Source of the DNA: Octopus vulgaris
Taxonomy: Eukaryota
DNA: 64,000 nucleotides
NCBI GenBank assembly: GCA_951406725.2
Contig: OX597816.1
Span: 39,060,001 to 39,124,000, forward strand
Direction: 5' to 3'
The position numbers were made by a program, and so were the translations under genes. Below the pieces are notes generated by a model, which saw only the letters and a list, made by a program, of their open reading frames with translations, did no database searches and was not told the origin of the DNA. This document shows positions 5,771 to 60,800 of the stretch, one piece after another; positions within the stretch are counted from its first letter, which is position 1; each line of letters starts with the position of its first letter.

Positions 5771-5939
5771 ATCTCTACTAAATGTCACCACTCTGTTCTA
5801 TTTCATTTTTGTTTACTGCCTGTGTTGCATACTACACGCTCTGTTTGCTTTTTGAAAAAAAAGAAACAAAGCGTGTAATATGCAACACAGGCAGTAAACA
5901 AAAATGAAATAGAAGAGAGTGGTGATATTTAGTAGAGAT
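5771..5939. repeat. Long inverted repeat, about 76-bp arms with 4 mismatches
   Basis: atctctactaaatgtcaccactct...gctctgttt versus aaacaaagcgtgtaata...gtggtgatatttagtagagat. Confidence 0.9.
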
Positions 5940-8083
5940 GACCTAGAAGTTGTTGCTTTTCAATTACTATTGCAAACAGCACTAGCTTTCTTCAGCTGAG
6001 TACATGTCATTGATTGGTTAAAATTACTCAAATAAGAAAACTTTAACATGAAATAACTTCTAAAATACAAAATTTTGCCAAAAATGTTGAAAGTAAACTG
6101 TGTTCAGCGTGAGAAATTACACTAGTATATGAAGTTTCAAACTGTTTAGTTAAAAAAAATAATAATTAAAAAATTTGTGAGCAAAACTGAAGAGATCCCT
6201 TGTATGCCAGCCAGAAAATACAGTATTCTTACACTAAATTGTAAAGAATTTTAATTTTCTTAAAAATATTTTAAACTAGGTTTGATATCAAATGTAATAT
6301 GTAATGAAAGAAATTATGAGAAATGGTTTACTTGATAACCTCTGATCATCTCTTTTCTAAAATAAAAGCTACATTGAATATTTAGTAATGACCCAGATAC
6401 ACTGACATTTATGTTGCTGATAACACTTCCCTACATTCTGGAACTTTTTCTTAAATGAAAGTGTGTGTTTATCTTGTAGATTTTGCAGTAGCTTTTCTAA
6501 ATCTGTTACCATTCCCTTTCCATCCCACTCCCATGTTATTTTTGATTACATGACATTCTTAATCCTTTTGATACCAACCCAGCTGAGACTGCTCCTGGTT
6601 CTGTGACACAAACTTCCTGTTTTAAAATGGTCTAAATTAAGACATGCTAACAAAATATTATTTCGGTTTATGTTCCAAATACCAGCTTAATAATGACACT
6701 TATTTTATTAAATTCTTCATTATTTTCAAAATTTAAGTGAAACAAAAGTAGTTTAGTGTATTTCAACAGAAATATTGTAACATAAAAGTTACATAAATCG
6801 TTGCAATAAAAATATATTCACTTCAGAAATAAAAAAAGAAAAAGCAATAAACCTTAATTCATCATTACCATCAGCATCATTATTGTTTTTACATTGGATT
6901 GGGTTTATGCTGCCACATGGTGGACAAATCATTGTATTCTATAGCTTGATGCATTTTCTGTTGCCAACACTTATCTGATTTTCAAGTAAGTTATTTTTAT
7001 TCCACTGATCTTGAAACATCAAAACTAAACCATGTCACCCACTGGGTTACACTGATTCTCCCTGGCAATTACATTAGGGTTACGTTTGTTTTTGGAATAC
7101 TCAACCACTTCACATTTTAATACAATAAATGAAATAACCAAGAGGAAGTTATCCTCAGATCAGACTCTTACTCTGAAGGTTTGAAACAGATTGGATTCCA
7201 GTGAATGCATCTAAGAACTGTGTGGTGGTGTTAAAGCTGGCATTTGATTAAATCTGCCATCCATTCTTAAAGTTTATTTTCTAAGAAAGAAGAGCAATGT
7301 GGTGCCTATACTGAACTGGAAAAAATTTTGGGAGATTAATACAGCAAAATGTTTTAATTAGACATATTTACGAAGAAAGTTCCAATGGTGTGCTGATTGT
7401 AGAAGACTAGCACATTAAATAATTTAGTAACAAAATGTTTAGGAAAGAAATTCCAGCAGAGTTTTGAATTTGCAAGGAAGCTCTTAAGTGTCTAATAATG
7501 TCTGAGAGGAAGCATAAAGGAATAAATGGTGAATATATATTAGGAATTAAGAGAATATACTACATCATCATTGACATCTTAACATCCACTTTTCCATGCT
7601 TGCATGGGTGAGATGGAATTCATTGAAGCAGATTTTGTACAGCTGGATGCCCTTCTTGTTTCCAACCTTTACCTGTTTCTAAGTAAGGTAATATTTCCCC
7701 ATGACCAGACATGTTTTCACAGAGTATTGGCAACAAAGGACAACACTTGCATTATGATGACACTCATTTGTAACTATCATGAAATGTCATGGCAAGGCGA
7801 CTCACACTCATATTTATCTAATGGGCGTTTTTCAGTTTCCATCAACCAAATCCACTCACACGGCTTTAGTCAGCCCAGAGCTAAAGTAGAAGACACTTGC
7901 CCGAGGTACCTCACAGTGGGATTGAACCCATGACCATATAGTTGCGAAACAAACTTCTTACCACACAACCACATGGAGTGAATGTATCTTCTAAGAATAG
8001 AAAACATTTGTAGAAACTACAAGATAAATTGAATAAGAACAATTTTCCACTCTACCATTCTGTTTTCTTGTTTTATTTTGCAG

Positions 8084-8296
8084 GGAAGAGGTGGCTTAGG
8101 TAGTATCTTTGTCTGGGCGTCTGGTAACGGAGGCTCTTATTATGATTCTTGCAATTGCGATGGATACACTAATAGCATCTACACCTTATCAATCAGTAGT
8201 ACATCAAAAAATGGTGTAAAACCTTGGTATCTAGAAGAATGTGCTTCAACAGTCGCTTCTACTTACAGTAGTGGATCCTTCAATGAGCCGCAGATT
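8084..8296 (+). CDS. FURIN: Furin-like convertase exon with oxyanion Asn ([17 protein letters not shown]...[14 protein letters not shown]...[11 protein letters not shown])
   Basis: ttttgcag acceptor, ATT|gtgagt donor; 213 nt; phase 0-0. Confidence 0.97.
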
Positions 8297-8629
8297 GTGA
8301 GTTTGTCTTTTATTCTTGCTTTCTTTTTTTTTTCTTTTTTCCTCATTTGAAAAATTGCACAACTGAGGAATTTTGTTTCTATACATTTCTGTTTTTGTTT
8401 GCCATATTTTTGTCATTCTGCATAATGTTTTTGTTATAAACAAGAAGGTAAGTTATTGACTGAAGCAAACAGTTAGGTGGTGGTGATGGTGGGGGGGTTT
8501 TTGTTGCTGCTGCTATTGTTGTTGTTGTTGTTTGGCCACCAGTCATCCATGATCACACAGGCCTATGATGTATAACTTTGACACAAGTATATCTAGGATT
8601 CCTTAATTATCTCTTCACCTGACCTGTGT

Positions 8630-14671: not shown

Positions 14672-17396
14672 CTATTATTATTATTATTTTTATTATCATA
14701 TTCTTTCAGTTCTGTTTCCATTTCTTGCCGAGTGTTTTCTTGGTACCTAGGGCAGGGAAATACACTATATACATTGGTAGGCCATTAAAATAAACACAGC
14801 AGATTGTTCATTTACAAAGTCATGTAATAGAGGAAAAGGGAAAGAAAGAGAGAAAAAGGAAAAAATAAAAAAAGTAAACAAAGAAAATAAAGAGGAAAAA
14901 GTAAAGAAAATTCACAGCAACAATGCTCTTCTCAGTATATGCGATGTACCAGTTAAGACAATCTTTTACACTTTCTGCATAGATGGTAAGCCAGGGATCA
15001 TTCTTAAATAATTTTCAGTTCTTTTTTTGATCATTCCAAGTGCTCCTACAATCACTTGTATTGTAACTCTCTTGAGATGCCACATCTTTTCGATTTTGAT
15101 TAGCAAATCTTTATATTTTCTGAGTTTATCAAATACTTTTGCGAAGATATTATGGTCATGGGGTATGCTCATGTCAGTCAATAAACAGACTTTATTGTTT
15201 TGGTCTTTCACAACAATATCTGGTTTATCTGCTTTGATGGTCCAGTCTATACATACTGGAAAGTTCCAAAGAATCGTTACATTTTCTCTCTCAGTTATAA
15301 CGTCAGGGTGGTACTTCTACCAAAACTTCAGTAGTTTTGATTTTATAATGCTGACACATTATCCAATGTAGACCAACTCTGTCATGTCTTGATTTGTACT
15401 CTACAGCTGCTAAAATCTTACACCCAAAGATTAGGTGGTCCACTGTTTCAATCCCACCATTGTAGTATCAGCACCTTGGGTCTACATCATTTTTCATCAC
15501 ATTGGCTTGATCGTTCAAGGTCAATAAGCTCTGATCTTTAGCAGCCAAGATATAGCCTTCACTCTCTGCCTTTAGCCCCAAGCTCCATAGCCACTGATGG
15601 GTGTGCTTCTGGTCTACTTCAGCTTGTTTGCTACGGGCCACATATTTGCCATGCAGAGTTTTTAGTTCCCACCTATCAACCAATTTGTTATTGATTTCAC
15701 CTTCTTTGCAACTACAGTTGCTGCATTTCCATAATGCTGTTTAACCTGGGTATTATGCATAAACTCACTAGGAAATTCTTTGCTTTCCTTCGTAACAGAA
15801 TGAAGCTTTTTACATCTCTCATGGTTTTCAATGAGCTTTAGCACCCATTCATTAGATGTTTCAAGATATTTTGCCAGTCCAGTTGTGGTGGTTTTGTAAG
15901 AGATTTCAAATTGAATCAAGCCATGACTTTTTCGAGCTTTGGGTAGGTAAAGACAATCTGCATCTCCCTTTGGGTAGTGCATCTTATTGCAAGTCAGCAG
16001 CATATGGATTTTCCTGTCATTTTTCCTTATTTCGCTCATACTCCAGTTCAATGCATTGGAACTGTAAATGATAACCAGAACTGCTAAGGAATTTATGGCT
16101 AACACTTTGTTACATGCATTTAACTTGGATTTTTGGACTGCTTAAACTCTCCTCTACATTCCTTCCTGATCTCTTTCATGTTTGAATGTCAGAGTCCTCA
16201 TTTATTCCAAGGTATTTGTAAGTTTGTTCCTGGTCAAGTTCTTTTATAACTGTGTCAACATCCAACACAACTGAAGGTGAGGTCTTCAATTTCCCTTTCT
16301 GGAAAGTGGCCAGGGCACATGCATGAAAACCAAATTCCATCCCACTGTCATCACTGAATGCTTTCACAGTATGTAGTAGTCCTTCAAGCTCATTATTGTC
16401 GTTGCCATAGAATTTTAAGTCATCCATATAAAATAGATGACTTAGTTTCCTGTTTTTATACCCATACCCTGTTCTGTTTGTGATGGGTATTAGGGATGTA
16501 CAAAAAATTAAAGGTGAAAGTGAGTCACCTTGGAGAATACCACAGTTGATATTAATATTTTTTGTGGTCAGTCCTCCATTAGAGTGATATAACTGGAGAT
16601 TCATATTCCACACTGACATGTTGTGTTTCATGAAGTTTGAAATAACAGGAAAAATTTTGAAGACATCTAGCGATTTCGAAATCTGTGAATGCGGTATGCT
16701 GTCAAAGGCCTTTATATAATCAATCCATGTGGTTCTAAGAGTTTTGCATTTGTTATAACAGTTCTCAAAGGTCATGTGATTGATTAAGAGTTGATCTTTG
16801 CATCTACATGAGCCTCGTTGGCACCCTTTTTGTTCAGTGGGGAAAATATCGTTCTGTTCCATAAATTTGTATGTTTTCTCCATGAGGATGGATGTTGTGG
16901 TAGATAGACATGTTATGGGCTGATAGTTTTGGGGAAATTTAGTTTCATTATTCTTCAAGTAATACCTCTTGTCTAACCAATCAGGTGTCTTCATAGGATC
17001 TCTCATAATTTCACTGAATAACTGGACTAACTTTTCGTGTGCACAGAAGAGCAATGCAAGCTAGAAATTTAGCACCCTTTCATTACCAGGGGATTTCCAC
17101 TCACAAGCCTTCATGAGTGTCATCCTTAGATCTGCTATTGTGATGTCTTCCTATGCTTGTTCTGATAGATTTTGGTTGGATCCTTCTGTGCATCTAATCC
17201 AGTCTTCATTTTCATTGTAAGTCTTTTCATTGCTTCAGATATTTTTCCAAAAGTTTTCAACTTCTTCCATGGGAGGGGGGAATCTTCAACGGTCATTTTC
17301 TCCTTCCCTATTTCTCTGTAGAACAATGGTTCCTAACCCTTTTATTTAAATGATGATGAGTTTTCCCACTGACCCCTTTTAATATGCTTGTCCTTA

Positions 17397-18822: not shown

Positions 18823-19458
18823 CACTGTGTCTCATAAATTCTCTATCGTAAGGTGAATAGAAAAAGGCACAGGTATTTAGAAATACCTAGGTGATTGTTA
18901 AAGTAAAAAATAACGACCAAATCTGTCTCAGAACTCTGACAATCTTAAAAACAGAAAGGAGATATTGGATAGGGTAGTCTTAGAGAGCCTTTTTTAGACA
19001 TGGTTAAGTGCTTTTGTTGGTTAAGTTGGTTTGATCTGGGGTTCTGCAACAAAAATAAATTTGAAAATTTATAAACTGCCAACTGATTTAACCCTTTAGC
19101 ATTACATCAGCCATACCTGTGTTATGTTCAAACTGGCTGGATCTGGCCTCTCACACCTACCTGACAAAGTTATTCTAAAAATTCTAAACAATGTGAATAA
19201 ATAAGCATTTATTATATTTGACAGATTTATATGAATGAAAAAGGGTTAATATGTATTTGAAGAGAATCAAGATACTCAGAAATTTGTATGGGGTTTGGGT
19301 AGAGGAGTACATTTTTGATCTAGCAACTAATGTGGGTTTTTTTGTAAGGCAGTAGTTTATGACTTGAGGAAGATTTGGCTGCTTGTTATAGCAGGTCAAG
19401 TGACCTCTTAAAGGCTCCCATTCATGAAAGTTGACGTTGCAACTATTTTTATAAAATA

Positions 19459-19857
19459 CTAGCAGTATCGCCCGGCGTTGCTCGGGTTTGTAAGGGAAAT
19501 AACTATATAAGCATTTTTAGAGAGTTATAGCCAAAAAATAGCAAAAAAATGCATTAAAAATGGAAAAAAAAATTATGGTAAATTTTTTTTTAAATCGTTG
19601 ACTCATCGTAGACATTTTTAGAGAGTTACTTCCCTTATATAATAGCGAAAAAATGCATTAAAATGGAAAAACATTATGGTAAATTTTTTTTTAAATCGTA
19701 GACTCATCGTAGACACGTGCTAATACCCAGAAGGGCTCGATATGAATCACAACTATAAGATACCCGGTTTTGGTTAAACTGCATCGCAAAATGTGGGAGA
19801 AGTTAGGAATCTAAATCGTAGGAGACAGACACACAACTTCACTTTTATATATAAAGA
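19459..19857 (-). mobile_element. Non-autonomous Helitron, copy 1
   Basis: On - strand: 5' TC start, 3' cccgagcaacgccggg hairpin then CTAG; A^T insertion site. Confidence 0.85.
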
Positions 19858-19869
19858 TTATAAGTAAAA

Positions 19870-20391
19870 CTAGCAGTATCGCCCGGCGTTGCTCGGGTTT
19901 GTAAGGGAAATAACTATATAAGCATTTTTAGAGAGTTACTTCCCTTATAGATGCCAATTCGGGCTTTCTTAGCCATTTCTGTTTTGGTGTCTTCAAGCCA
20001 TGAAGTCGTTGTTCTAAAAGAACACTGGTCTCCTTGACAACGCTTTACGACGTTGATTTCCTTACACTCCCCTCCCCACAGCTTCACGAGGGAGGGAAGA
20101 AGGGGGAGAAGCAAACAGGTGCAGGTGTGACCATGGACACCAACTCCGCCGCCATCGACACATGAAGAATTATGCATTAAAATGGAATAAAAAATGATGT
20201 TAAATTATTTTTAAACTCGTAGACTCATCGTAGACGCGCGCTAATACTCAGACTAATACTCAGGGCTCAATATGAATCACGACTATAAGATACCCGAATT
20301 TGGTTAAACTGCACCGCAAAATGTGGGAGTAGTTAGGAATCTAAATCGAAGAGGACAGACACTCACACAACTACAGTTTTATATATATAGA
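19870..20391 (-). mobile_element. Non-autonomous Helitron, copy 2, with an extra internal segment
   Basis: Same termini as copy 1; 19950-20170 is not shared with the other copies. Confidence 0.85.
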
Positions 20392-20892
20392 TTACATGTC
20401 TAAATATGTTTCTGCTGTGGCTGCAACAACAACAGCAGCAGCAGCTGTTGATTTTCAAATTATTCAAAATATTCATGTCTGCAGTTGACTCCCAAGACTT
20501 GTAAACATATGAGAAGCCATATTACCATGAATTTGAGCACAAGGGGCCTCCATGACAAAATTAAGCAATAGCTGTCACTTGCAAGCAAGTAAAGGCTAAT
20601 AGCATGTACCAAGATTTCACTAAATGCTTTAGGTACCTATTTAATTACAAACAGATTTAGACACCCACTCAGCCCTTCCAACTTTGACTCTGCAGAACAT
20701 TGAGGATGTGACACCTGGAGGGAAAACTAGCTGCACCAATAGGTAATTAGTATGCATTTTCAGCTGAGTAGTCTACAGTAACATGAAATGAAGTGCCTTG
20801 CTGAAGGACACGATACACTACTGGGTCCAGAAATTGGACCCATGTCTTTATAATCATGATTCCAATTTGCCTAATGACAAAATACCTATTCT

Positions 20893-22860: not shown

Positions 22861-24277
22861 GTATTTTATCTACAAGTGAAGAATGAAGATAAAATTGGGT
22901 TGTCACTTGACTGGTAAACTGTAGTCAAATGAATATAGATAGTAGACAAATGTGGACACAGTATTTATGTTATTTTAATAAAATAACGGAAATACTGTGA
23001 CCAATAACTAAGCAATTCAACTTTTTGTGTCCGTATATACTTGAAACACAACAAAATCGTATTAAGATTTAGAATATTCTATAAGGGAAACTACTCTGAC
23101 ATATATGCGAGTTATCTCCCTTAAATATACGAGCCAGTTTTATTTTCGTTTATTTTCGTTTTCGGTTCATTGGTGTGTGCGGAATGAATTTTGTTTTGTA
23201 AATTCGTGGATTTTAGCCACTAATTTCTTAAAATATTGGGTACGAACGAATTTTTGTGAAATAGTGTTTGAAATAAAATACCTAGAGAAACCGTTCGCAA
23301 CGCAAAATAAATGAAAATAATGTAGTAAAGTAGATAAATCAAATATTAATTACGGGGGTGAAAAAGAAAACATTAATTCAATTGCTAATATTATTTTAGC
23401 CTGATTTTGGCAAGTACAGGAGACAACTCTAGACACGCTTCGCTCAACTTACACCTCCTCAGCTAAGCGTAGATTTCCCAGATCTAGTAGAGAGAGAATC
23501 ACAACAGTCGATGTACAGTAATATCTCAGGGTTATTCTCCCCTATTGCCTTGTACGATGTACATTATTTTACAGCACTAGAAAGGTTACCTTGTTCTTAG
23601 CAAGACAAGACTAAAAGGACCTCTCGACCCTGTTTTCTTTTGGCTTGCTTACTAATCACTCTAGGGCAGGGATTCTCAACCATTTTTTATTTTATTTATG
23701 GACCCCTTTGATTACTATTTTATTCTGGTATGCCCCACTAGCCATTTAATGTTTAAAAACTAGTTTTATAGAAACTTCTTTCAAAATTCCTATTTTGATT
23801 TTCACTTATTAACTTGTGTAGATTGACCTATGTAAAATGTTAGAGAAAGAAACCTGGCTGTTTCTTACAGTACATAGCAATATGTACATTGAAAGCAAAA
23901 ATATTTCAGGGGCCCTTAAAATACTGTTGTGGATCCCCAACTTACTATTTTGTAGCATGAACCCCCAAAAATCTTATATGGACCTCGATTGAGAGCCATT
24001 GCTTTTGAGGATGTGTTGTGTGGCATTTTCCATTGAGGTGCGTAGACGGAGATGCTTTGTACACTGTGAGTGTACAGAGTGTTCAGTACACTACTTTTAC
24101 TCAGGTAATGTGACCAAGAAGGGGAACAGACGAGAGAACAGTATCAGGAAGCCTGGAGTGTGTGGATGGGTGAAAGGAGCAAGCATATACAGTTAATTGA
24201 AATTTTTTTGTTGCAAATTAATTAAAATGAATAACACTATTTCTTCTTTTTTCTTAATTTCATTTTAACCAACAAAG

Positions 24278-24591
24278 GCCCTTAATAAATTCTGTTGTCC
24301 GTAAAAGTTACCTGAAGGTAGATGGTTGTCAGGGCACAACAAATGGAGTTCAGTATTTGGAACATGTACAGGCACAGATAAGTTTAACATATTCTCGACG
24401 GGGTGACCTTAAAATCATGTTGACATCACCAAATGGCACACGCTCCGTATTACTTCCACCTCGGCCAAATGATCTTGTGGCAACAACATTTGATAATTGG
24501 CCTTTTCTCACAGTCCACTTCTGGGGAGAATATGCCATTGGTGAGTGGTTGTTGGAAATAGAAGATGTTTCAAATCACCACTCCAGTTCAG
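24278..24591 (+). CDS. FURIN: Furin-like convertase P-domain exon (PLINSVVRKSYLKVDGCQGTTNGVQYLEHVQAQISLTYSRRGDL...HFWGEYAIGEWLLEIEDVSNHHSSS)
   Basis: aacaaag acceptor, G|gtaatt donor; 314 nt; phase 2 to 1; LEHVQ, RRGDL and HFWGE motifs. Confidence 0.93.
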
Positions 24592-25291
24592 GTAATTATA
24601 TTTCTTTTATCTTTTATTTGTTTCAGTAATTGGACTGTGGCTATTCTGGAGTACCACCTTAAGTGGTTTAGTCAGACAAATCAACCCCAATACTTATTTT
24701 TTTTTTAATTAAAATCTGGTACTTATATTGTCTTCTTTTGCAGAACTACTAAGTTACAAGGATGTAAATAAACCCATACCAATTGTTGGAGGCAGACACA
24801 AAGAAAGATATGCACACACACACACACGACGGGCTTCTTTCAGTTTCTGTCTACCAAATCCACTCACAAGGCTTTGGTCAGCCTGGGGCTTTAGTAGAAG
24901 ATACTTGCCCAAGGTGTTACACAGCGGGTCTGAATCTTGGGAAGCAAACTTCTTAACACACAGCCATGCTAATTAATTTCAGTGAATATTTTGACTTTTT
25001 TGTTGAAATACATCCGTATATTTTATGTCTTAATTTTTTGAAGCATATCATTATCTGAACTGATGGAGAAAAAATTTTCAAAATATTAGCCTCTACTCTA
25101 TTACTGTGTGATTTTCATGCTGGGCAAAATGCTTGGTAGCATTTGTTTGTCTTTACGTTCTGAGTTCAGATTCCACCAAGGTCAACTTTGCCTTTCATCC
25201 TTTTGGGATCAATAAAATAAGCACCAGGGTTGATATAATCAACTTGCCCCTTCACTCGAAATTTCAGGCCTTGTTCCTTTATTAAAAAGGA

Positions 25292-25849: not shown

Positions 25850-28840
25850 TAATGAATAAACCCCTCCAGAAAATACAGATGGAGGGCCCTCGAAGGCAGC
25901 TGGTGGAGAGGACTGAGCCAAACCATCTTCTGGCAGCCCCTCCAACCTTGCTGATTTCCAAACAAACTTCATGTTTATCTGGCAGGGTTTGGGATCTGAG
26001 GATCATCAACTGTATGGAGTGGGGCTTGCAGTCAACATGATCAGCACACCACAAGGAGTATCTGAGCACATTATCACCATCAACTAAATCAGGCACCATC
26101 CATCTCATCAGCACCTATGTTCCCACACTGGCAGCTGAGAATGTAAACAAGGACAAGTTCTACAAAGACCTGCTAAAAGTGCTTGATCAAATGTTTGAAA
26201 AAAAAATGAAGTTTTCATCCTTGATGACTTCAGTACAAGAGTTGGGTCGTGTCAGCAGATGTGGCCAATTTGTCTTAGACATTTTGGAATTGGGAAGATC
26301 AACAAAAACAAACAGAGATTTTAGAATTCTACTCTAATAATTGCCTCTGTATTACAAGCACCTTCTACAATGACAAGGACTGAAAGAGAACAAAGACACC
26401 ATCCTCCCTCATATGTAAAAGCTCTTGATTCTCTGTTGACATGAAAGATGCCGACGTAGTGACCCTATGTAAGAATAAGAGAGACAAGAGAGATTGCAAC
26501 AACTGCACAGGCATTTCATTGCTATGTATTACAGGAAAAGTATTTGCCTGAATACTGTTGAAGCGCCTGCAGAAGTTAGCAGAGAGAGTTCTTCCAGAAA
26601 GTCAGAGTGGCTTCAGATCAAGATGATATTTTCTCTTTGACAGCTCCAAGAAATGTGTTGCAAACAAAGTCAACCCCTACGTGTGTCAGCTGTATGCCTA
26701 ACTAAGGCATTTGATACAGTCAGTAGATCAGGATTGTGAATAGTTCTTCAAAAGATTGGATGTCTACCAACTCTTTTCCAACTGATGTCCTTCCGTGGAG
26801 GTATGAAAGCCATGGTCCAGTTTGATCGTTCCACATCAGACGGCTTTGAGATCAGAATCAGGTTTAAACAGAGTTGAGTTCTGGTACTGACCCTTTTCAA
26901 CATCTTTGCCCTGTTGTTGCAGATTGTCTTCAAAAAATCTCTTGGAAATGTCTGCCTTCACTGGAGAACTGATGAGTCCCTTTTCAATCTTGCATGCTTC
27001 AGAGCAAAAACCAAGACCGAGTCAACCTTGATCAGAGATTTCCTCCTTGCAGATGATGCAACACTGGTTGCTCACAGTGAGTCAACACTACAGACAATGA
27101 TGGAGCACCTTTCACAAGCCTTCAAAGCATTTTCTCTTGTAATCAGCATCAAGAAGACTATCATTCGGACACAAAATAGCACAACTGAAGACAACATCAT
27201 GCTGGACAAGACTTTGGGATTTAAAGAAATTCTGCTAATTTGGGTCCACAATAACTTCGACGACCTTCCTAGACAACTAAATTGGTGTCAGGATAGGAAA
27301 TGCTGCTACATCTTTTGGTAGACTCAGCAAAAGAGCATGGAACACAGTCATCATCATCATCATCATCATCGTTTAACGTCCGTTATCCATGCTAGCATGG
27401 GTTGGACGGTTCGACCGGGGATCTGGGAAGCCAGAAGGCTGCACCAGGCTCCAGTCTTATCTGGCAATGTTTCTACAGCTGGATGCCCTTCCTAACGCCA
27501 ACCACTCCGTGAGTGTAGTGGGTGCTTTTTACGTGCCACCTGCACAGGTGCCAGGCGAGGCTGGCAACGGCCACGGTCGGATTGGTGTATTTTACATGCC
27601 ACCGGCACGGAAGCCAGTCAAGGCGGCGCTGGCATCAGCCACGAGTCGGATAGTGCTTTTTACGTACCACCAGACCAGGGATCCTGGCTGGTTCAATTCG
27701 ATTTCGATTTTGCTTGCCCAACATGTCTTCGCAAGCAAAAGGGGTTGGCATGGGTGCCTGTCGTATGGTCGGATTGATGTATTTTACGTGCCACTGGCAC
27801 AGAAGCCAGTGGAAGCGGCGCTGGCATCGGCCATGAGTCGGATAGTGCTTTTTACGTACCACCAGACCAGGGATCCTGGCTGGTTCAATTCGATTTCGAT
27901 TTCGCTTGCCCCAACATGTCTTCGCAAGCAAAGGGGGTTGACATGGGTGCCTGTCGTCGGATGAGGTTCTATATCGACTTTGCTTGCCTCAGCAGGTCTT
28001 TGTGTCCAAGGGAGGAAAGGCATTCATAAGTGGGCTGGGCTCACTTGTCCTGCCTGGTCTTCTCACGTACAGCATATTTCCAAAGGTCTCGGTTGCTGGT
28101 CATTTCCTCAGTGAGGCCTAAAGTTTGAAGGTCGTGCTTCACCACCTCGTCCCAGGTTTTCCTGAGTCTACCTCTTCCACGGGTTCCCTCAACTGCTAGG
28201 GATTGGTAGTGAATGCCAAAATAAGTATTTATGGAGCATACATACTGATCGCACACACACACCCCTCTATGGATCAGAGACCTGAACACTATACACTGGA
28301 CAAGAGAAGAAGCTCAATGTCTTTCATTTGAGATGCCTGCACAAGATCTTTGGAATTACCTGGCAAGACAAAGTAGCCAACATGGAAGTCTTGAAACAGG
28401 CAGCACTTCTGAGCATGACAGCTATTCAGTGCAAAAGAAGACTAAGATGGTTTGGACATGTGAAACGGATGGATGAGGACAGAATTCCCAAATAGCTGTT
28501 ATATGGCAAGTTGGCTTCAGATAGCAGATCCACAAGCTGATCGAAGCTGAGATTTGAAGACACATGCAAAAGCAGCCTGACCAAGTGCCATATCAATGCA
28601 AAAATTTTGGGAAAAGTTAGCTGACAGAACAGCATGAAAATCTTCAGTGAACAAAGGAGTCAAACAGCTTGAAGAAGGAAACATCTTGGCCCTCGAAGCC
28701 AAAGAAAGAAAGACATCACACTGCAGCCCTACACCACCTTCCTTGCTTGCAAATTTTGCAGCAGAACTTGCTCATCAAACATAGGATCAGCCATTAAAAG
28801 AAGCTGAGAAGCTGCAGGAAGAATACAAGTACTTAAGACA
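25850..28840 (+). mobile_element. Degenerate RTE-clade LINE (APE endonuclease plus RT)
   Basis: ISTYVPT, LPESQSGFR, TKAFDTV, DFLLADDATLVAHSE and RLRWFGHVKRM..DRIP remnants; frameshifts. Confidence 0.85.
27348..28210 (-). mobile_element. (GAT)n-tailed RTE-derived element nested in the LINE; shorter copies at about 11323-11710, 47986-48300, 59330-59752
   Basis: VEGTRGRGRLRKTWDEVVKHDL RTE C-terminus; ggacgttaaacgatgatgat tail. Confidence 0.85.
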
Positions 28841-31736: not shown

Positions 31737-32060
31737 ATACAAGTTGTATATAATATCTTATATAATGTTTATGCATTATCAGCAACAGCAACAACATTAT
31801 TTTCACCCACTTTTTTTATGCTGGCATAGTTAGAACGGTTTTTCTACAGGAGTGCTTTAAAGCCAAATGCTCTTTCTATCATCAACCCTTTTAGTCCCTT
31901 CAAGTGGCTTGCCATGATGCAGTACCCCTAGTCATAAAACTACGACGAAAATGTGTTTCTACATACATATATTACTACTGATGCTCTTCCTGTTGTCAAC
32001 TCTCACCTGTTTCCAAGCAAGGTGATATTTCTCCATGGCTTGACAGTTTTTCATAGAATA

Positions 32061-32369
32061 TCTTTATATATAAAACTAACGTTGTGTGTGTGTGTGTCTG
32101 TCTACTCCGATTTAGATTCCTAACTACTCCCACATTTTGCGATGCAGTTTAACTAAAAGCGGGTATCTTATAGTCGTGATTCATATCGAGCCCTTCTGGG
32201 TATTAGCACGCGTCTACGATGAGTCTACGATTTTTTAAAAATTATTTACCATCATTTTTCCGCATTTTTAATGATTTTTGCTCGGGTTATATAAAGGAAG
32301 TAACTCTCTAAAAATGCTTATATAGTTATTTCCCTTACAAACCCGAGCAACGCCGGGTGGTACTGCTAG
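32061..32369 (+). mobile_element. Non-autonomous Helitron, copy 3
   Basis: a^TCTTTATATA ... cccgagcaacgccggg-tggtactg-CTAG^t. Confidence 0.88.
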
Positions 32370-32868
32370 TTAGAAATAAATAACATTCATGTAATGTCAA
32401 GACAAGGCGGAGAGACAGAGAGAGAGACTCATATATACATAACAAGCTTCTTACAGTTTCTGTCTATCAAATCCATTCACAAGGCTTTGATCAGCCTGTG
32501 GCTCAAGGGGCCACACAGTGATACTGAATTCGAACACCACATATGGCTAGGAAGCAAACTTGTTAATCGGGTCACCTCACCTGCACCTAATTATTATTCA
32601 TACCAACAGATTACATTGTCGATAAAAACTTGATAATAGGTATTAGCAGCACTAATTTGATACAGAAAAGAGAAACAAATCTGCTGATATGACATAGCAG
32701 AAAAAAATTATATCTTTGAAATGATGGCATGAAATATGCTCTGTCATGTAATTAATAATGTGGTTACTCATCCAAAGATAGATATGAGGTTTATATTCTG
32801 TTTCTTGTATCGTTTCTCTATCATGTTTTAAGTTTATGCATTTATTATTTCGTATCAAATGACATTAG

Positions 32869-39307: not shown

Positions 39308-40450
39308 AGAAATAAAATTCTTCATTGAAAAAAACAAAGGAAGTGACTATTTTATTTTAGATTTTTTTATTAGGTTTTTCTTAATTTTTTAAAGTTTTTT
39401 TTCTTTGTTTCATCATTATTGTGGCATTTGTTTACTTGTCGATAAATTATCAATGCATGTAGGAATTAGAGTAAGTGGGGTTAAATTCATTGCAGTATTT
39501 GATGATAGAGTTTACACTTGCATTTGAAACCCCAGTAGAGGTGTTACTCTATGGTGATGCATGAATGACACCCATACCAGTGACACGTAAAAGGCACCCA
39601 GTACATCTGTGAAGTGGTTGGCATTGGGAAGAGCATCCAGCCATAGAAATCAAGACCAAACTATTCAATAAAATTATGATACAGGGTTTTAGCTGAAATC
39701 GCTTTAAAACAGGACGTTTGCGACACAGTTGTGTTAGTATTGAAAGGCTTAAATGTCAAAAGGTGCATCTTTTTGGTGGTTATTGTTGCTATTGTTTTTG
39801 TTCAACCCCAGGTCAACTCTTATCAAATAGATCTATTATCAAAGACATTTCAGCCTGGACCATCCCATTGTTTTGTATAATTGGCAATACATTACCTTAT
39901 TCTTGCTTTCTTGTTTAAGATGACTACAAGTGGTTTGAGAGAGAGAGAGAGAGAGATCTGGCTGCTATTTCTAGGAGGTAGTACATCTGCATTGAAGCTC
40001 TCTCAGTAGTTCATGTGACTCCTTCATTACTCCACTGACAAAAAAAAAAAAAAAGAAAAGCTGTTAAATATCCCTCAAGAAAATACTGCTTTTTCACAAA
40101 AGCAAAGGCTTGCTACAGTAACTGAACCATAACAAAAAATTTAGGGGCTGAAGCCCAAGCTTAATATGTAACTAGGTATTTTGCCGCCTTTGTTTTGTGA
40201 CATTATTCTAAAGATAATATAGCACAATTCACTACTGCTTTTTTCTTTACCTCAACTTCCTTTATTGTTTTTATACTATAAGTTAGAATCCGTAAAGTAT
40301 ACTAGCCATCTCAATATAGCTAACCACAAAGGGTGGGTGTTACTGTAGCTTTTAGCCCCAGGAGATCATCGTCTCCAGCTGGCTTTTGACACACTTTCTG
40401 TGCTCTTATGATATTTGCAAAGGGAGGTCATCCCTCTCTCGTAAACCTAA

Positions 40451-40510
40451 GTGATACGCACAGACTGCAGTTTCGAGGTAATTTGCCTCTTGTCAACGTA
40501 CGGTAATCAC
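40451..40510 (-). ncRNA. Apparently intact type I hammerhead ribozyme, U3-A8 core variant
   Basis: gtgat-tac-cgtacg-TTGACAA-GAGG-caaatta-CCTC-GAA-AC-TGCA-GT-C^tgtgcg-t-atcac. Confidence 0.8.
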
Positions 40511-43500
40511 CGGTTTTCGATGAAGAGAGACCTGTTTGCGAATATCTATTTAATGTTTTTAGAATCCTCTTCTAAGAAAAACACACCATGTGTAACAATC
40601 GTTTAGAAAATAGCCAAGGACTCAGTTTCTAATAAACTTAGTAGTTACAAATCTTGATATGACTATGAAATGATACAGGTCAAAAAGAGTATGAACAACA
40701 CAGCTTCCCATTTCTGCTCATCTGTAAATCTCAGGTTTTACATCATTCATCATCATCATCATCATTTTACATTTGCTTTCTATGATAGCATGGGTTGGAT
40801 GGGCTGTTATGGTCTTAGTCAGTTAGATTGGAAGGCCAACCTAACTAACTCAGATCATAATAACCTATCCATAATCTATAGAAACAAAGCCAAAACTGAA
40901 ACTGTATGTTTCAGTTTGCACTTTGTTTCTATAACTGGATGCACTTCCTATCACCAATCACTTTACTGTGCCCTGGGTGAATGTTATCACAGCTACTTTT
41001 ATGTAAGTGATCAGTAGTGTTTTTGCTTCCTGGAGTTTGGGTAAGTTTGTATGCCATCTAAAGATACCCTTCCTAACACCAACCACTTTACAGAGTATAC
41101 TGCGTGTTTTTTTTTTATTTTTACGTGGCACCAATATATATATAGATATAGATATATAGATATATTAACATATGAGCAAGTACAACCTGTTTCATGGTGG
41201 AAATGTCACAAACTGTTACCCTCACCAAGCAGGCCTGGTGAGGAGAGTTGCTAGAAACCTAGCTTCTAGAGGGGCAGATGAACCCACTCTATGATCAACA
41301 TCTAGCAAATGTATGTGGTCAATGCCCAGAATGTCATAAAACTACTGGGAATGAGATGCCCCCAAGCTGTCTTTAAACCATGTGTTTAAGATATATAACC
41401 AGAGGAATGTAGTTTTTAAGGTAGTTGTAACACATCTTGCTCCATTTTTCTGCTGTCATTTCCTCTAAAATATCCAGAATAATGGTTCAGTAAAGTTGTC
41501 TCCCAACCTCTTGAACCCTCATCTACTGACAATGATCAATAAAAAGAATATTTTGAAAACTTGCATGTTGGTAGAGTCCAGATTTGTGTGTGTGTGCGTG
41601 CAATTATGTTTTCTGCTTTTCTTTGTACTGATAGCATTCGAACAATACAGTGACAATTGCTTTATGTCTCCTGTAAACAATGTTTCGTCACTTAAGTTTC
41701 TTTATAGTTTCAATAAGTAAAAACCAGTTAAAATCAGCAAAATTATCATACAGTTTCTTATTTGAAACAAGGGTTAATAATAGGAAGGTTTTCCTGCTGC
41801 ATAATGATTTAAAATTTTGACACAGAGCCAGCAATTTTTGAGGAGAGGAGGAAGTCAGTTGCATTTTCACCCTTACTTGACTAGTACTTATTATATCAAC
41901 TCTAGAAGGATGAAGGGCAAAGTGGACCTTGACAGAATTTGAGCCTAGAATGTAAAGACAGATGAAATGCTGCCACTAAGCATTTTGTATGGTGTGCTAA
42001 TGATTCTGCCAGCTCATTACCTTTTCCTGCCGTATAAATACTTATTTCTTTACTACCCACAAGGGGCTAAACACAGAGAGGACAAACAAGGACAGACAAA
42101 CGGATTAAGTCGATTATATCGACACCAGTGCATAACTGGTACTTATTTAATCGACCCCGAAAGGATGAAAGGCAAAGTCGACCTCGGCGGAATTTGAACT
42201 CAGAACGTAGTGGCAGACGAAATACCGCAAAGCATTTCATCCAGCGTGCTAACGTTTCTGCCAGCTCGCCTGTATAAATACTGCCACTATAAACCTTGTC
42301 CAAGTCATGCCAGTGTGGTCAAATCAAGTGTAATATCACTATCAATGATTTCTATTCAACCTAGATGTCTTGTTTTTTCTTTATGGGATTGTTTTTTGCT
42401 TTCTGAAATGTCATGTGGAGTAGTTAAATTTTTAATCACTGGCCTTTATGCAGTGTTGTTCACAGATTTCTCATTGGATGCACAGTCACATTGTGCAAGT
42501 TTTCTAAATTTTTAGTCCATTGATCATTGGCAGTCATTGGTTCTTTCATAAGTTTTGTACTCATCTATAGGTCTGATAGGCATTTGGCCTGTTGTACTCA
42601 GACTACACATTACCTTATTCTTGCTAAAGAAACCTCTGATACCCATGTGTCATCCACATTCTGGACTTCAGTGCTCAGCTGCCAATTTTTTTCGTTACAC
42701 TGATTTGTTTCTGGACTGCAGCCTTTTCTTGAAGGCTAGCTTTTCTTTTGCATTCAGTTTTTGTTGTTTTACTCAGCATAAACAGTCGTTGCTATTTGTC
42801 AGTCAGCATTCTCATTAAAGCAGTCTTGATGTTTTCCTACCATAAAGCCCAAGGACTTCTGACATGTGTTTTCAGTAGTGTAGTAATACTCCATGATATT
42901 GATCTGAAAAGTTCCCAATTTAGACAAATTTTAAAATCTAGCTACAATATCTCAAACACTCATGAACTACTTGTGAAATATTTATCAAGGACCAAAAACT
43001 ATACATGAACAGTTCCCCAAATAAAGTATTATTTTCACACCCAAAGATTGCACCATGCCCTGTTTGTTTCTTTCTTGTGCAAATGATAAAAGCTCTCCTA
43101 GAAGTGAACCTTTTTCCTGAAGAGCAGGAAGGATATAGGAAAAGCTGTAATGAATGTAAAGATAGTTATTGATCAATAAAACCCGACCTGAATTTTACTG
43201 GAGAAGGAAGAAGAATCTGAATACGACATGGATTAACTTAGAAACCATTTAATGGAGTTTTTATTAATCCTAAAATAAGACGGGGCAAATATCATATGCA
43301 TATATAATAATTGATACACCCAACAACATGAAATTGAAAAATAGAGAAATGATTGCTAAAATCCAAAGTAAATAGAGTATATTAAAAGGGCAGTATCTTG
43401 TAGAAAAAGTATATTCCAAAGAAATTTCTCCCTACCTTCCTTTCTTTATTACTAATTAAGCTACATGTTGTTCCATACTTGGCCAAAATATAATGTGGTG

Positions 43501-57876: not shown

Positions 57877-60800
57877 GGAATTATTTCCCATTCTCTTAAG
57901 GTTTCCAAATTCTTATGATATCAACTATATATATATATATATACTCTTTTACTTGTTTCAGTCATTTGACTGTGGCCATGCTTTAGTCAAGCAAATTGAC
58001 CCCAGGACTTATTCTTTGTAAGTCTTGTACTTATTTTATCAGTCTCTTTTGCCAAACCGCTAAGTTACAGGGAAACACACCACCATCGGTTGTCAAGCGA
58101 TGTTGAGGGGACAAACACAGACACGCAAACATATACACACACATACGTATGTATATATATACATATATACGATGGGCTTCTTTCAGTTTCCATCTAACAA
58201 ATCCACTCACAAGGCTTTGTTCGGCCCGAGGCTATAGTAGAAGACACTTACTTAAGGTGCCCCGCAGTGGGACTGAACCTGGAACCATGTGGTTCGTAAG
58301 CAAGCTACTTACCACACAGCCACTCCTACGCCTATATATATATATATGTGTGTGTGTGTGTTTGTGTACCTTTTTGTCCTTCACCACTACTTGACAACTG
58401 GCGTTGGTTCGTTTACATCTTTATAACATATCAGTTCAGCAAAAAAGACTGATAGAATAAGTGTCAGACTTAAAAATAAGTCCTGGGTTCGATTTGTTAA
58501 ACTAAACCCTTCAAAGCAGTCCAATAACTGAAATAAGCAAATGATAAATTAACTGAAATTTCCCTTTTAAGTAGAAGACAGCAAAAACCTGTTAGTGATC
58601 ATTGAAGAAAGAGAGAGATGATTTTATGAAATTGAGAATTTGCATAAGGGGAAAATATGAGTTTTGTTAACAGATACTTTGGTAGGGGAATATAATCTTC
58701 ATGCATTTATTAGATCAATCAGCATGGATTTTTTTGATATGTAGAACATGACTTATGAACAGTTATTGGAAGATAATGATTTGCATAATTATATTATAAA
58801 AATATAAAAGCTAAGAGAAATAATTCATGTAGGCCAGTTACATTAATTTAGATAAATCAGACAGATGATGATGTACTAAATGATGCATACAAAAAATTCT
58901 CAGTCTCAGTTAAGTGAAATTTGTTTCTCTGTTTGAGAAAGACAACAAAAACCTAGTGGTAGTTGTCAATGATACTCAAAGAAAAGGGGGAAATAATATC
59001 AAGAACTTAAGAAGTAATTTGGCTGCATGATAAGAAGTTTGCTTCCCATTCATATGATTTCAAGTTCAGTTCCACCTGCATGGCGCCATGGACAAATATC
59101 TTCTACTATACCCTTGGACTAACCAAAGCCTTGGGAATGTATTTGTGGACAGCAATGGAAAGAAGCCCATCTTATATGTGTGTGTGTCTTTGTGTTTGCA
59201 TTTGTTCCCCCCCACGACTCAATAATTGGTGTTATCTTATGTCCCAATAACTTAGCAGCTCAGGAAAAGAGACCAATATAATAAGTTCCAGATTTTAAAA
59301 AAATGAATCGAAATTGAACCAATCTTATGACTGGCACCCGGCAGATGCCAGGACCCCTGGACTGGAGATACGTAAAAAGCACTATCCGAATCGTGGCCGA
59401 TGCCAGCGCCGCCTCGACTGGCTTCCGTGTCGGTGGCACGTAAAAAGCACCATCCGAATCGTGGCCGAAGCCAGTGCCGCCTCGACTGGCTTCCGTGCAG
59501 GTGGCACGTAAAATGCACCAATCCGACCGTGGCCGATGACAGCCTCGCCTGGCACCTGTGCAGGTGGCACGTAAAAAGCACTCACTACACTCACGGAGTG
59601 GTTGGCGTTAGGAAGGGCATCCAGCTGTAGAAACATTGCCATATAAGACCGGAGCCTGGTGCAGCCTTCTGGCTTCCCAGATCCCCGGTCGAACCGTCCA
59701 ACCCATGCTAGCATGGAGAACAGACGTTAAACGATGATGATGATGATGATGAAGTACTGGGGGCAATTTGCTTGACTAAGATGGTTCCCCTGCATGGCCA
59801 TAGTCCAATGACTGAAACTAATAAAAGATAAACGATAGCTAAGGAAAAATCTAGTTTTTCTTTGCCAACAAAAAGACAACTTTAGACATGTTTCAGTTTT
59901 ATTGGAGATCAAGCTAACATGATCAATCAACAAAGGATTTTTGGCAAGGAATAATTTACAGTGATCTAAGGCAAATAACTCAAGTGGCTCAATAACATGG
60001 ATTTAGATATATCAGGTAGTGGCTGATGTACTGAATGATCTATACAAAATATTCCCAAATAATTGAAATATCCATGTTAAAAAAAAGAAATCAAAAATAG
60101 GGGTAGTTGTTGGTGACTGTCAAAGAAAAAGGGAAAATAATTTCTAGAAATATGAAATTAATTTACACATCAAAGAGAAAAATCTGATGCTTGTTTACTG
60201 GTAAGAGGGATAAATTTGGACAAATTTTGGTCTTGAAACTTGTCAAAATCTCAAAACAGTCTTGCATAGATTATACTATGTTGATGAGATCTAATAAGAC
60301 TGAAGCATGTCTAGAATTGTCTTCTTGCTAGCAAATAAAGATCAGGTTTTCTCCTTAAGTATCTTTTATCTTTTACTTATTTCAGTTACATGTTGGGTCA
60401 AATGCCTCAAAGGATTTTAGTAAAAAAAAAATCACCCTCATTACTTAACTCTGGTGCTCATTCTATCAGACTCTTTTGCCAAGCCACTACGTTAAGGGGG
60501 CATGAACAAACCAACACCAGTTGTCAAGTGGTGATGAGGGACAACACATAAAGACACATATATACACACAGTTTGCATCTACCAAATTCACTTACAAGAC
60601 ACATGTTGGCCCAGGACTGTTGTAGGTGCTTGCCTAAGGTACTGTGCAATGGGACTGAACCCAAAACCACATGGTTGCAAAGCAAGCTTCTTAACAACAC
60701 ACCTTTGCCTGTACCTAGAGGCAACTATAAGCATCTTTTACTTGTTTCAGTCATTAGACTGTGGCCATGCTGGAGCACCACCTTGAATATACAATTATAT

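Follow-up and report, generated by a model that had tools for sequence, protein, structure and literature searches.

The hammerhead-shaped motif on the minus strand of the analyzed window, a stretch of 64,000 nucleotides from Octopus vulgaris (G000:C3:39,060,001-39,124,000), very probably belongs to a single, truncated copy of a repeat of about 355 bases that occurs both dispersed and in tandem arrays. The repeat is likely a non-LTR retrozyme mobilized by Penelope-like elements (PLEs), and the U3-A8 core pair of the copy is shared by its subfamily. The motif is a real hammerhead structure, but it is no locus-specific ribozyme.

A type I hammerhead motif in the window

The window held a single match to the hammerhead descriptor, and the strict descriptor matched once in the window and not at all in 60 windows resampled with a first-order Markov model. 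Every structural element that a first-pass annotation, made from the sequence alone, had listed for this position was found on the minus strand (Table 1). The motif has the three stems, the NUGANNA/GAAA/UH core and the open stem I of a type I hammerhead, and positions 3 and 8 are pairable as proposed there, forming the Watson-Crick pair U3-A8.

Table 1. Positions of the hammerhead elements, the retrozyme copy and the convertase exons in the window
Feature	Position	Strand	Detail
Type I hammerhead motif, extended stem I with internal loop	40451..40510	-	descriptor match, fold
Stem I extension, GTGAT / ATCAC	40510-40506 / 40455-40451	-	
Stem I, CGTACG / TGTGCG	40502-40497 / 40462-40457	-	
Core, TTGACAA (UUGACAA)	40496-40490	-	U3 = 40496, A8 = 40491
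Stem II, GAGG / CCTC (CCUC)	40489-40486 / 40478-40475	-	7-nt loop
GAAA	40474-40471	-	
Palindromic stem III, ACTGCAGT, also given as ACUGCAGU	40471-40464	-	
C17	40463	-	
Predicted cleavage after GUC, between 40463 and 40462	40462..40463	-	
5'-truncated solitary retrozyme copy, 270 nt	40291..40560	-	monomer positions 89-358 of L026 unit
Target-site duplication, 9 bp, at element 3' end	40283..40291		
Target-site duplication, 9 bp, at truncated 5' end	40559..40567		
S8 exons of convertase	562-738, 8033-8347	+	
Open frame with convertase P-domain exon	24258..24626	+	PF01483, E 1.5e-23

The predicted fold of the 60-nt motif is ordinary (z = -1.07; 29 of 200 shuffles equally good), and its minimum free energy structure lacks stem III (-13.9 kcal/mol versus -10.1 kcal/mol for the hammerhead conformation), although a good fold is predicted for the motif with its context, 141 nt in all (z = -4.04; 0 of 200 shuffles). 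As a monomer, stem III amounts to 2 bp and a tetraloop; as a dimer, it is predicted to form an 8-bp duplex of -11.1 kcal/mol. Neither the window hammerhead nor a copy from a tandem array of the same family gave an Rfam match at E ≤ 10, the window copy thus falling short of the at least 34 bits of Hammerhead_1 (RF00163), and the Rfam scan of the whole window returned no hammerhead, its sole matches being sub-threshold miRNA-type hairpins.

The unexceptional 60-nt fold and the missing Rfam match would also suit a chance resemblance, or a canonical hammerhead that decayed independently at this locus. We give this explanation virtually no credence: it is refuted by the family data, in which hundreds of copies show the same state, and the resampled windows contained no match. 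The earlier suggestion that decay is an improbable source of the joint change at positions 3 and 8 held up as well, since U3-A8 occurs in 33 of 34 near copies (selected by likeness to the window; L027 omitted for overlap, as were two partial rows). Judged by this comparison, the U3-A8 pair of the window copy is inherited from its subfamily.

The window copy and its repeat family

Homology to the relatives is confined to the 270-nt copy, which ends at the usual 3' end of the family and lies between target-site duplications of 9 bp, within the range of more than 4 bp that characterizes retrozymes. The 181 nt around the motif gave 43 matches at 94-100% identity (40 of 2151 candidates scored; 2.8-Gb genome), with copies of 94-98% identity spread over many contigs. 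Tandem copies repeat with a period of 358 at locus L026 and of 355-357 at locus L092, an array of ten units with ten intact-stem hammerheads (G000:C4:13.62 Mb). The family therefore shows the organization by which retrozymes are recognized, monomers of 150-450 nt that stand in tandem and each contain a type I hammerhead, whereas the window copy is a solitary fragment. Folded as a circle, a natural monomer is predicted to reach -105.8 kcal/mol (z = -5.0; 0 of 100 shuffles), so that a self-paired monomer circle, a further retrozyme trait, is present in the predicted fold. No open frame of 70 aa or more overlaps the window copy, and none above 250 aa occurs in the array.

Insertions of the family have their 3' ends at one of two places, ~356-358 in the monomer or a point ~40-55 nt beyond. 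Relative to the predicted cut site, insertion ends lie ~170 nt downstream and do not coincide with it. Insertion anatomy was surveyed in 46 loci (L001-L054 minus eight overlapping loci, with array loci left out). An inverted piece was found in 15 of the 46 loci, (TA)n flanks also in 15, and a flanking repeat of at least 8 nt in 18, the latter by a heuristic that has no null and was applied to AT-rich DNA. Where loci were mapped, monomers adjoin other monomer pieces head to tail, or unrelated flanks. Contigs that are unstranded, from runs presumed to be RNA, contain family sequence as well.

At three loci (L006:2254-2676, L013 and L038:531-952) we observed a ~420-bp repeat that includes the final ~62 nt of a retrozyme monomer and has what we take to be Helitron-like ends. 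Copies related to this repeat lie at 19449-19934, 20172-20393 and 32060-32370 of the window.

Probable position within the convertase gene

The first-pass annotation had placed the motif antisense to a convertase gene, and the plus-strand S8 and P-domain exons bear this out. The copy is probably intronic in this gene, whose downstream exons are indicated by weak Pfam matches: cysteine-rich, exon-like frames occur 3-11 kb past the window end, the best furin-like match having an E value of 9e-4, below the cut-off. A frame at 42966-43169 was rejected as an exon for want of a Pfam match.

Other repeats were noted in the window. Between convertase exons, positions 5771-5939 form a long, near-perfect hairpin (91% inverted self-match), probably a MITE, to which several miRNA models matched below their thresholds. 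A broken retroelement inside the gene contains a 294-aa reverse transcriptase frame (16176-17060, minus strand; PF00078, E = 2e-19), and at 27575-27957 and 59370-59581 tandem repeats with unit lengths of 192 bp and 68 bp lie within a dispersed, GC-richer repeat family.

Co-option of the window copy, as an active ribozyme specific to this locus that would process an antisense transcript and control the convertase gene, is highly improbable. Core and stems II and III are undamaged in the copy, and contigs of one run (organism B) span both junctions of the copy, so that the insertion is not limited to this assembly. However, the junction contigs have a depth of 3.8-4.4, like the adjacent intron, they are unstranded and their RNA status is a guess. 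Moreover, the copy is without a tandem partner and has diverged like others, differing at seven places from the majority state of 28 near copies. Among the seven is position 1.1 (40462), which is U here and C in 25 of the 28, and one of the two G-U pairs of the motif is hence a private lesion; the stem II loop is one U longer than in 18 of the 28. Since the copy is antisense, it is the non-catalytic strand that a host pre-mRNA contains, and a link between ribozyme and convertase is not supported; such an orientation would be expected for a tolerated passenger and gives no sign of regulation. Nor is this motif the best candidate for an active ribozyme, as had been put forward: it stands alone, has lost its 5' part and bears the private U at position 1.1 beside the cut, and the units of the intact ten-unit array elsewhere are better candidates.

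Core states in the near family

A near-family pattern that leaves positions 3, 4, 7, 8, 10.1 and 11.1 and the stem III loop free gave 482 exact matches versus 0 in the control. Among the 100 matches listed, the 3-8 combination is C-G in 55, U-A in 35 and U.G in 8. Other copies thus do not lack the 3-8 pairing, the observation that the first-pass annotation had named as one that would speak against its reading; the pair can form in 98 of the 100. Counted by hand in the same 100, C3U4-G8 accounts for 32, C3C4-G8 for 23 and U3U4-A8 for 35 (10 from one array), followed by U3U4.G8 (5), U3C4.G8 (3), C3.A8 (1) and U3.U8 (1). An A at position 11.1, nearly always facing C10.1, is found in 59 of these rows, all outside the U3U4 group. 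With a tighter pattern, 132 matches were obtained, and the 100 listed comprise 30 U3.G8 and 70 U3-A8.

The stem III sequence ACUAUAGU accompanies G8 in 21 of 22 rows, and ACUGCAGU accompanies A8 in 71 of 77. Stem III is palindromic in 96 of 100 matches listed for a pattern that permitted two palindromic and two non-palindromic forms, and the palindrome is maintained with other letters in relatives. Copies within a subfamily share descent, and these counts of core states and palindromes are therefore of non-independent events. The G8-to-A change is of the CpG type and private in some copies (L165, L166 and L172). Among the C3-G8 near subfamilies, those of L129-L147 and L169-L188 have the C10.1.A11.1 mismatch, and many of their copies also have U4C; together they account for over half of the near-family copies listed. 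For C3 copies, a pattern of 9 nt had no discriminating value, with 3960 matches against 5241 in the control. A single match, L098, was tried as a C3-G8 copy in a U3 context and rejected, as it starts at its own truncation point and its C is probably derived from the flank.

Amplification of the U3.G8, U4C and 10.1-11.1 C.A subfamilies would be consistent with family hammerheads, those with U3-A8 included, that are relics of little or no activity; the repeat would then spread as a Penelope passenger without cleavage in cis, or through dimers with an intact partner. The insertion ends ~170 nt from the cut site point the same way, as does the poor in vitro cleavage by PLE hammerheads described in the part of PMC4209133 consulted. 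We nevertheless regard this explanation as rather unlikely, given the pairable 3-8 positions and palindromic stem III in nearly all matches listed and stems that covary across families 68-88% alike. Our preferred reading, a retrozyme family with subfamily-wide U3-A8 cores, agrees with these features.

Related families and the order of core changes

Covariation across related families that are 68-88% alike is seen in stem I, in stem II and in the palindrome of stem III. A sister family of 353 nt, 71% identical over 348 columns, has C3-G8 and the stem III ACUCGAGU; it shares both 3' ends with the window family, has a mean divergence of 0.8%, and is matched by Rfam Hammerhead_1 (RF00163) with 32.2 bits (E = 2.6e-6). 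An old, diverged C3-G8 relative (L117:135-300) is 77% like this family. A second, separately amplified U3.G8 group (L197-L200 and L211), 78-80% like the window family, has a GUU triplet and a stem I mismatch, and further U3-A8 groups are present besides it. Another tandem family (L194 and L206; G000:C1:8.13 Mb and 22.45 Mb) has a period of ~361 nt, U3-A8, a 6-bp stem I and units that are 99% alike.

A 39-row tree, computed after columns 3 and 8 had been taken out, implies a single change at position 3 and five at position 8, at least two of the five being changes in single copies. Rooted on a distant U-A family, this tree unites every C3 row in a single derived branch; in a 126-row tree, the U.G clade sits among U-A rows at an unresolved fork. 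An ordered path from C-G through U.G to U-A in the near family was tried but not adopted (parsimony, 2 steps versus 3; not rejected, AU p = 0.70), as the two trees have different roots, both on long branches, and do not allow the order of core change to be fixed.

Genome-wide census and Penelope-like elements

A matched pair of loose patterns gave 7238 matches for U3-R8 (control 949) and 2421 for C3-R8 (control 417). Above background, this corresponds to ~6300 versus ~2000, about 3:1, in pattern matches taken without stem checks that include a few double counts and miss the C.A subfamilies. Stem I had at least 6 bp in 8 of 27 loosely matched motifs from 18 hand-picked loci. The commonest U3-A8 motif listed flanks a 784-aa open frame with reverse transcriptase (RT) and GIY-YIG domains (L208).

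This frame belongs to a Penelope-like family (L207, L208) with short-stem U3-A8 hammerheads near its ends. A second such family (L094, L095) has 781-aa RT+GIY-YIG frames, likewise with short-stem U3-A8 hammerheads near the ends, and an additional upstream frame of 359-479 aa, which in L095 has no Pfam match. On the basis of a zinc-finger feature, we assume both families to be Neptune-like. Pairs of U3.G8 motifs that lie kilobases apart (L091, L093) were rejected as PLE ends since they enclose no PLE frame; the L091 pair encloses frames that we read as another RT type.

Because the pseudo-LTRs of PLEs bear hammerheads, with U3-A8 in this genome, and Xenopus retrozymes resemble pseudo-LTRs according to the portion of bioRxiv 10.64898/2026.07.22.740005 consulted, the fragment might be a solo pseudo-LTR of an autonomous PLE rather than an independent retrozyme. 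The comparisons make this quite improbable. None of the 36 PLE-search loci shares the window family monomer, as a pseudo-LTR should, and a search of these loci with three retrozyme monomers found no shared sequence except a separate insertion in the L079 flank. Moreover, the mapped monomers join only monomer pieces or unrelated flanks, and the PLE hammerheads have a stem I of 3-4 bp, not the 6 bp of the window family. An independent retrozyme thus remains the preferred assignment.

Discussion

The window family closely resembles the metazoan non-LTR retrozymes described in the parts of PMC7229834 consulted: monomers there measure 350-390 nt in mussel and 330/350 nt in axolotl, compared with ~355 nt in tandem, apparently non-coding units here, and both have a 6-bp stem I, a 4-bp stem II, a short palindromic stem III, a well-paired predicted circle and PLEs in the same genome. 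They differ in the core, which is C3-G8 there and U3-A8 or U3.G8 here. In the sections of PMC4209133 concerned, the Cercyon PLEs of Schistosoma mansoni show the same U3-A8 covariation, with about 1,300 genomic matches and a PLE context; the Cercyon hammerheads are minimal, lack a proper stem III and are mostly single, unlike the canonical stem lengths and tandem, apparently non-coding arrangement of the window family. Canonical EN+ PLEs, as excerpted from bioRxiv 10.1101/2021.04.23.441226, likewise form partial tandems and inverted 5'-truncated copies with a short tail at one end and microsatellite neighbors, but in the window family no coding frame of the lengths given above was seen, and it has no sequence in common with the PLEs compared.

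The novelty that the first-pass annotation implied for U3-A8 does not stand, as the pair is common in this genome and already published (PMC3088659, PMC4209133, within the parts consulted). According to PMC3088659, covariation of C3-G8 to U3-A8 occurs in several natural hammerheads, and pairs of this kind were active in vitro in work cited there; the pair is treated as a rare variant, and the section concerned mentions no U3.G8. In one type III hammerhead, by contrast, the 3-8 pair was rescued by a G-C swap only, according to the passages of PMC9901934 seen, and taken together these extracts indicate that the activity of 3-8 variants depends on context. In Xenopus, only one of nine predicted retrozyme dimers cleaved (bioRxiv 10.64898/2026.07.22.740005, in part), and for a squid genome 235 Rfam hammerheads are given in an extract of PMC6962438; further background on hammerheads is found in portions of PMC6155905, PMC3884650 and PMC2920678. 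Within an incomplete coverage of the literature, we came across no description of retrozymes in cephalopods or of U3.G8 families that have amplified, and searches combining retrozyme with octopus and cephalopod with hammerhead, of similarly incomplete coverage, returned PLE and genome papers only.

By analogy with published retrozymes, tandem source loci would be transcribed and their transcripts cut by the hammerheads, presumably with greater efficiency in dimers formed via the palindromic stem III, whose covariation points to dimer folding. A host ligase would circularize the monomers, which a PLE RT/GIY-YIG enzyme may then copy into AT-rich sites. The window copy would be a passenger, tolerated in the intron owing to its antisense placement; with one ribozyme only and 88 nt of the monomer missing, it should not give rise to a unit-length circle. 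As subfamilies with U4C and/or C10.1.A11.1 have been amplified, amplification is no proof of a functioning ribozyme, and in the amplified U.G, U4C and C.A subfamilies cleavage could proceed slowly, depend on rescue in trans or be unnecessary.

As a transposon fragment, the locus is unremarkable, and its family is of more interest. We tentatively suggest, as a possibility that we do not favor, that the core pair forms a natural allelic series in this genome, with a U3-R8 majority, changes among C-G, U-A and U.G at least five times in one radiation, and wobble families amplified twice, beside U4C families and families with a broken 10.1-11.1 pair. If so, these cores would cleave in their native tertiary and dimer context, contrary to expectations from mutagenesis; alternatively, slow or dead cores would be selected or rescued in mixed dimers, tuning the lifetime of the circle. 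Rfam scans and C3-G8 descriptors overlook most of the hammerhead-like cores of this genome. The family offers matched natural sequences that are 88-95% alike and differ at positions 3, 4, 8, 10.1 and 11.1, together with intact arrays, and so makes it testable which 3-8 pairs a tertiary-stabilized type I hammerhead tolerates and whether a retrozyme needs cleavage in order to spread.
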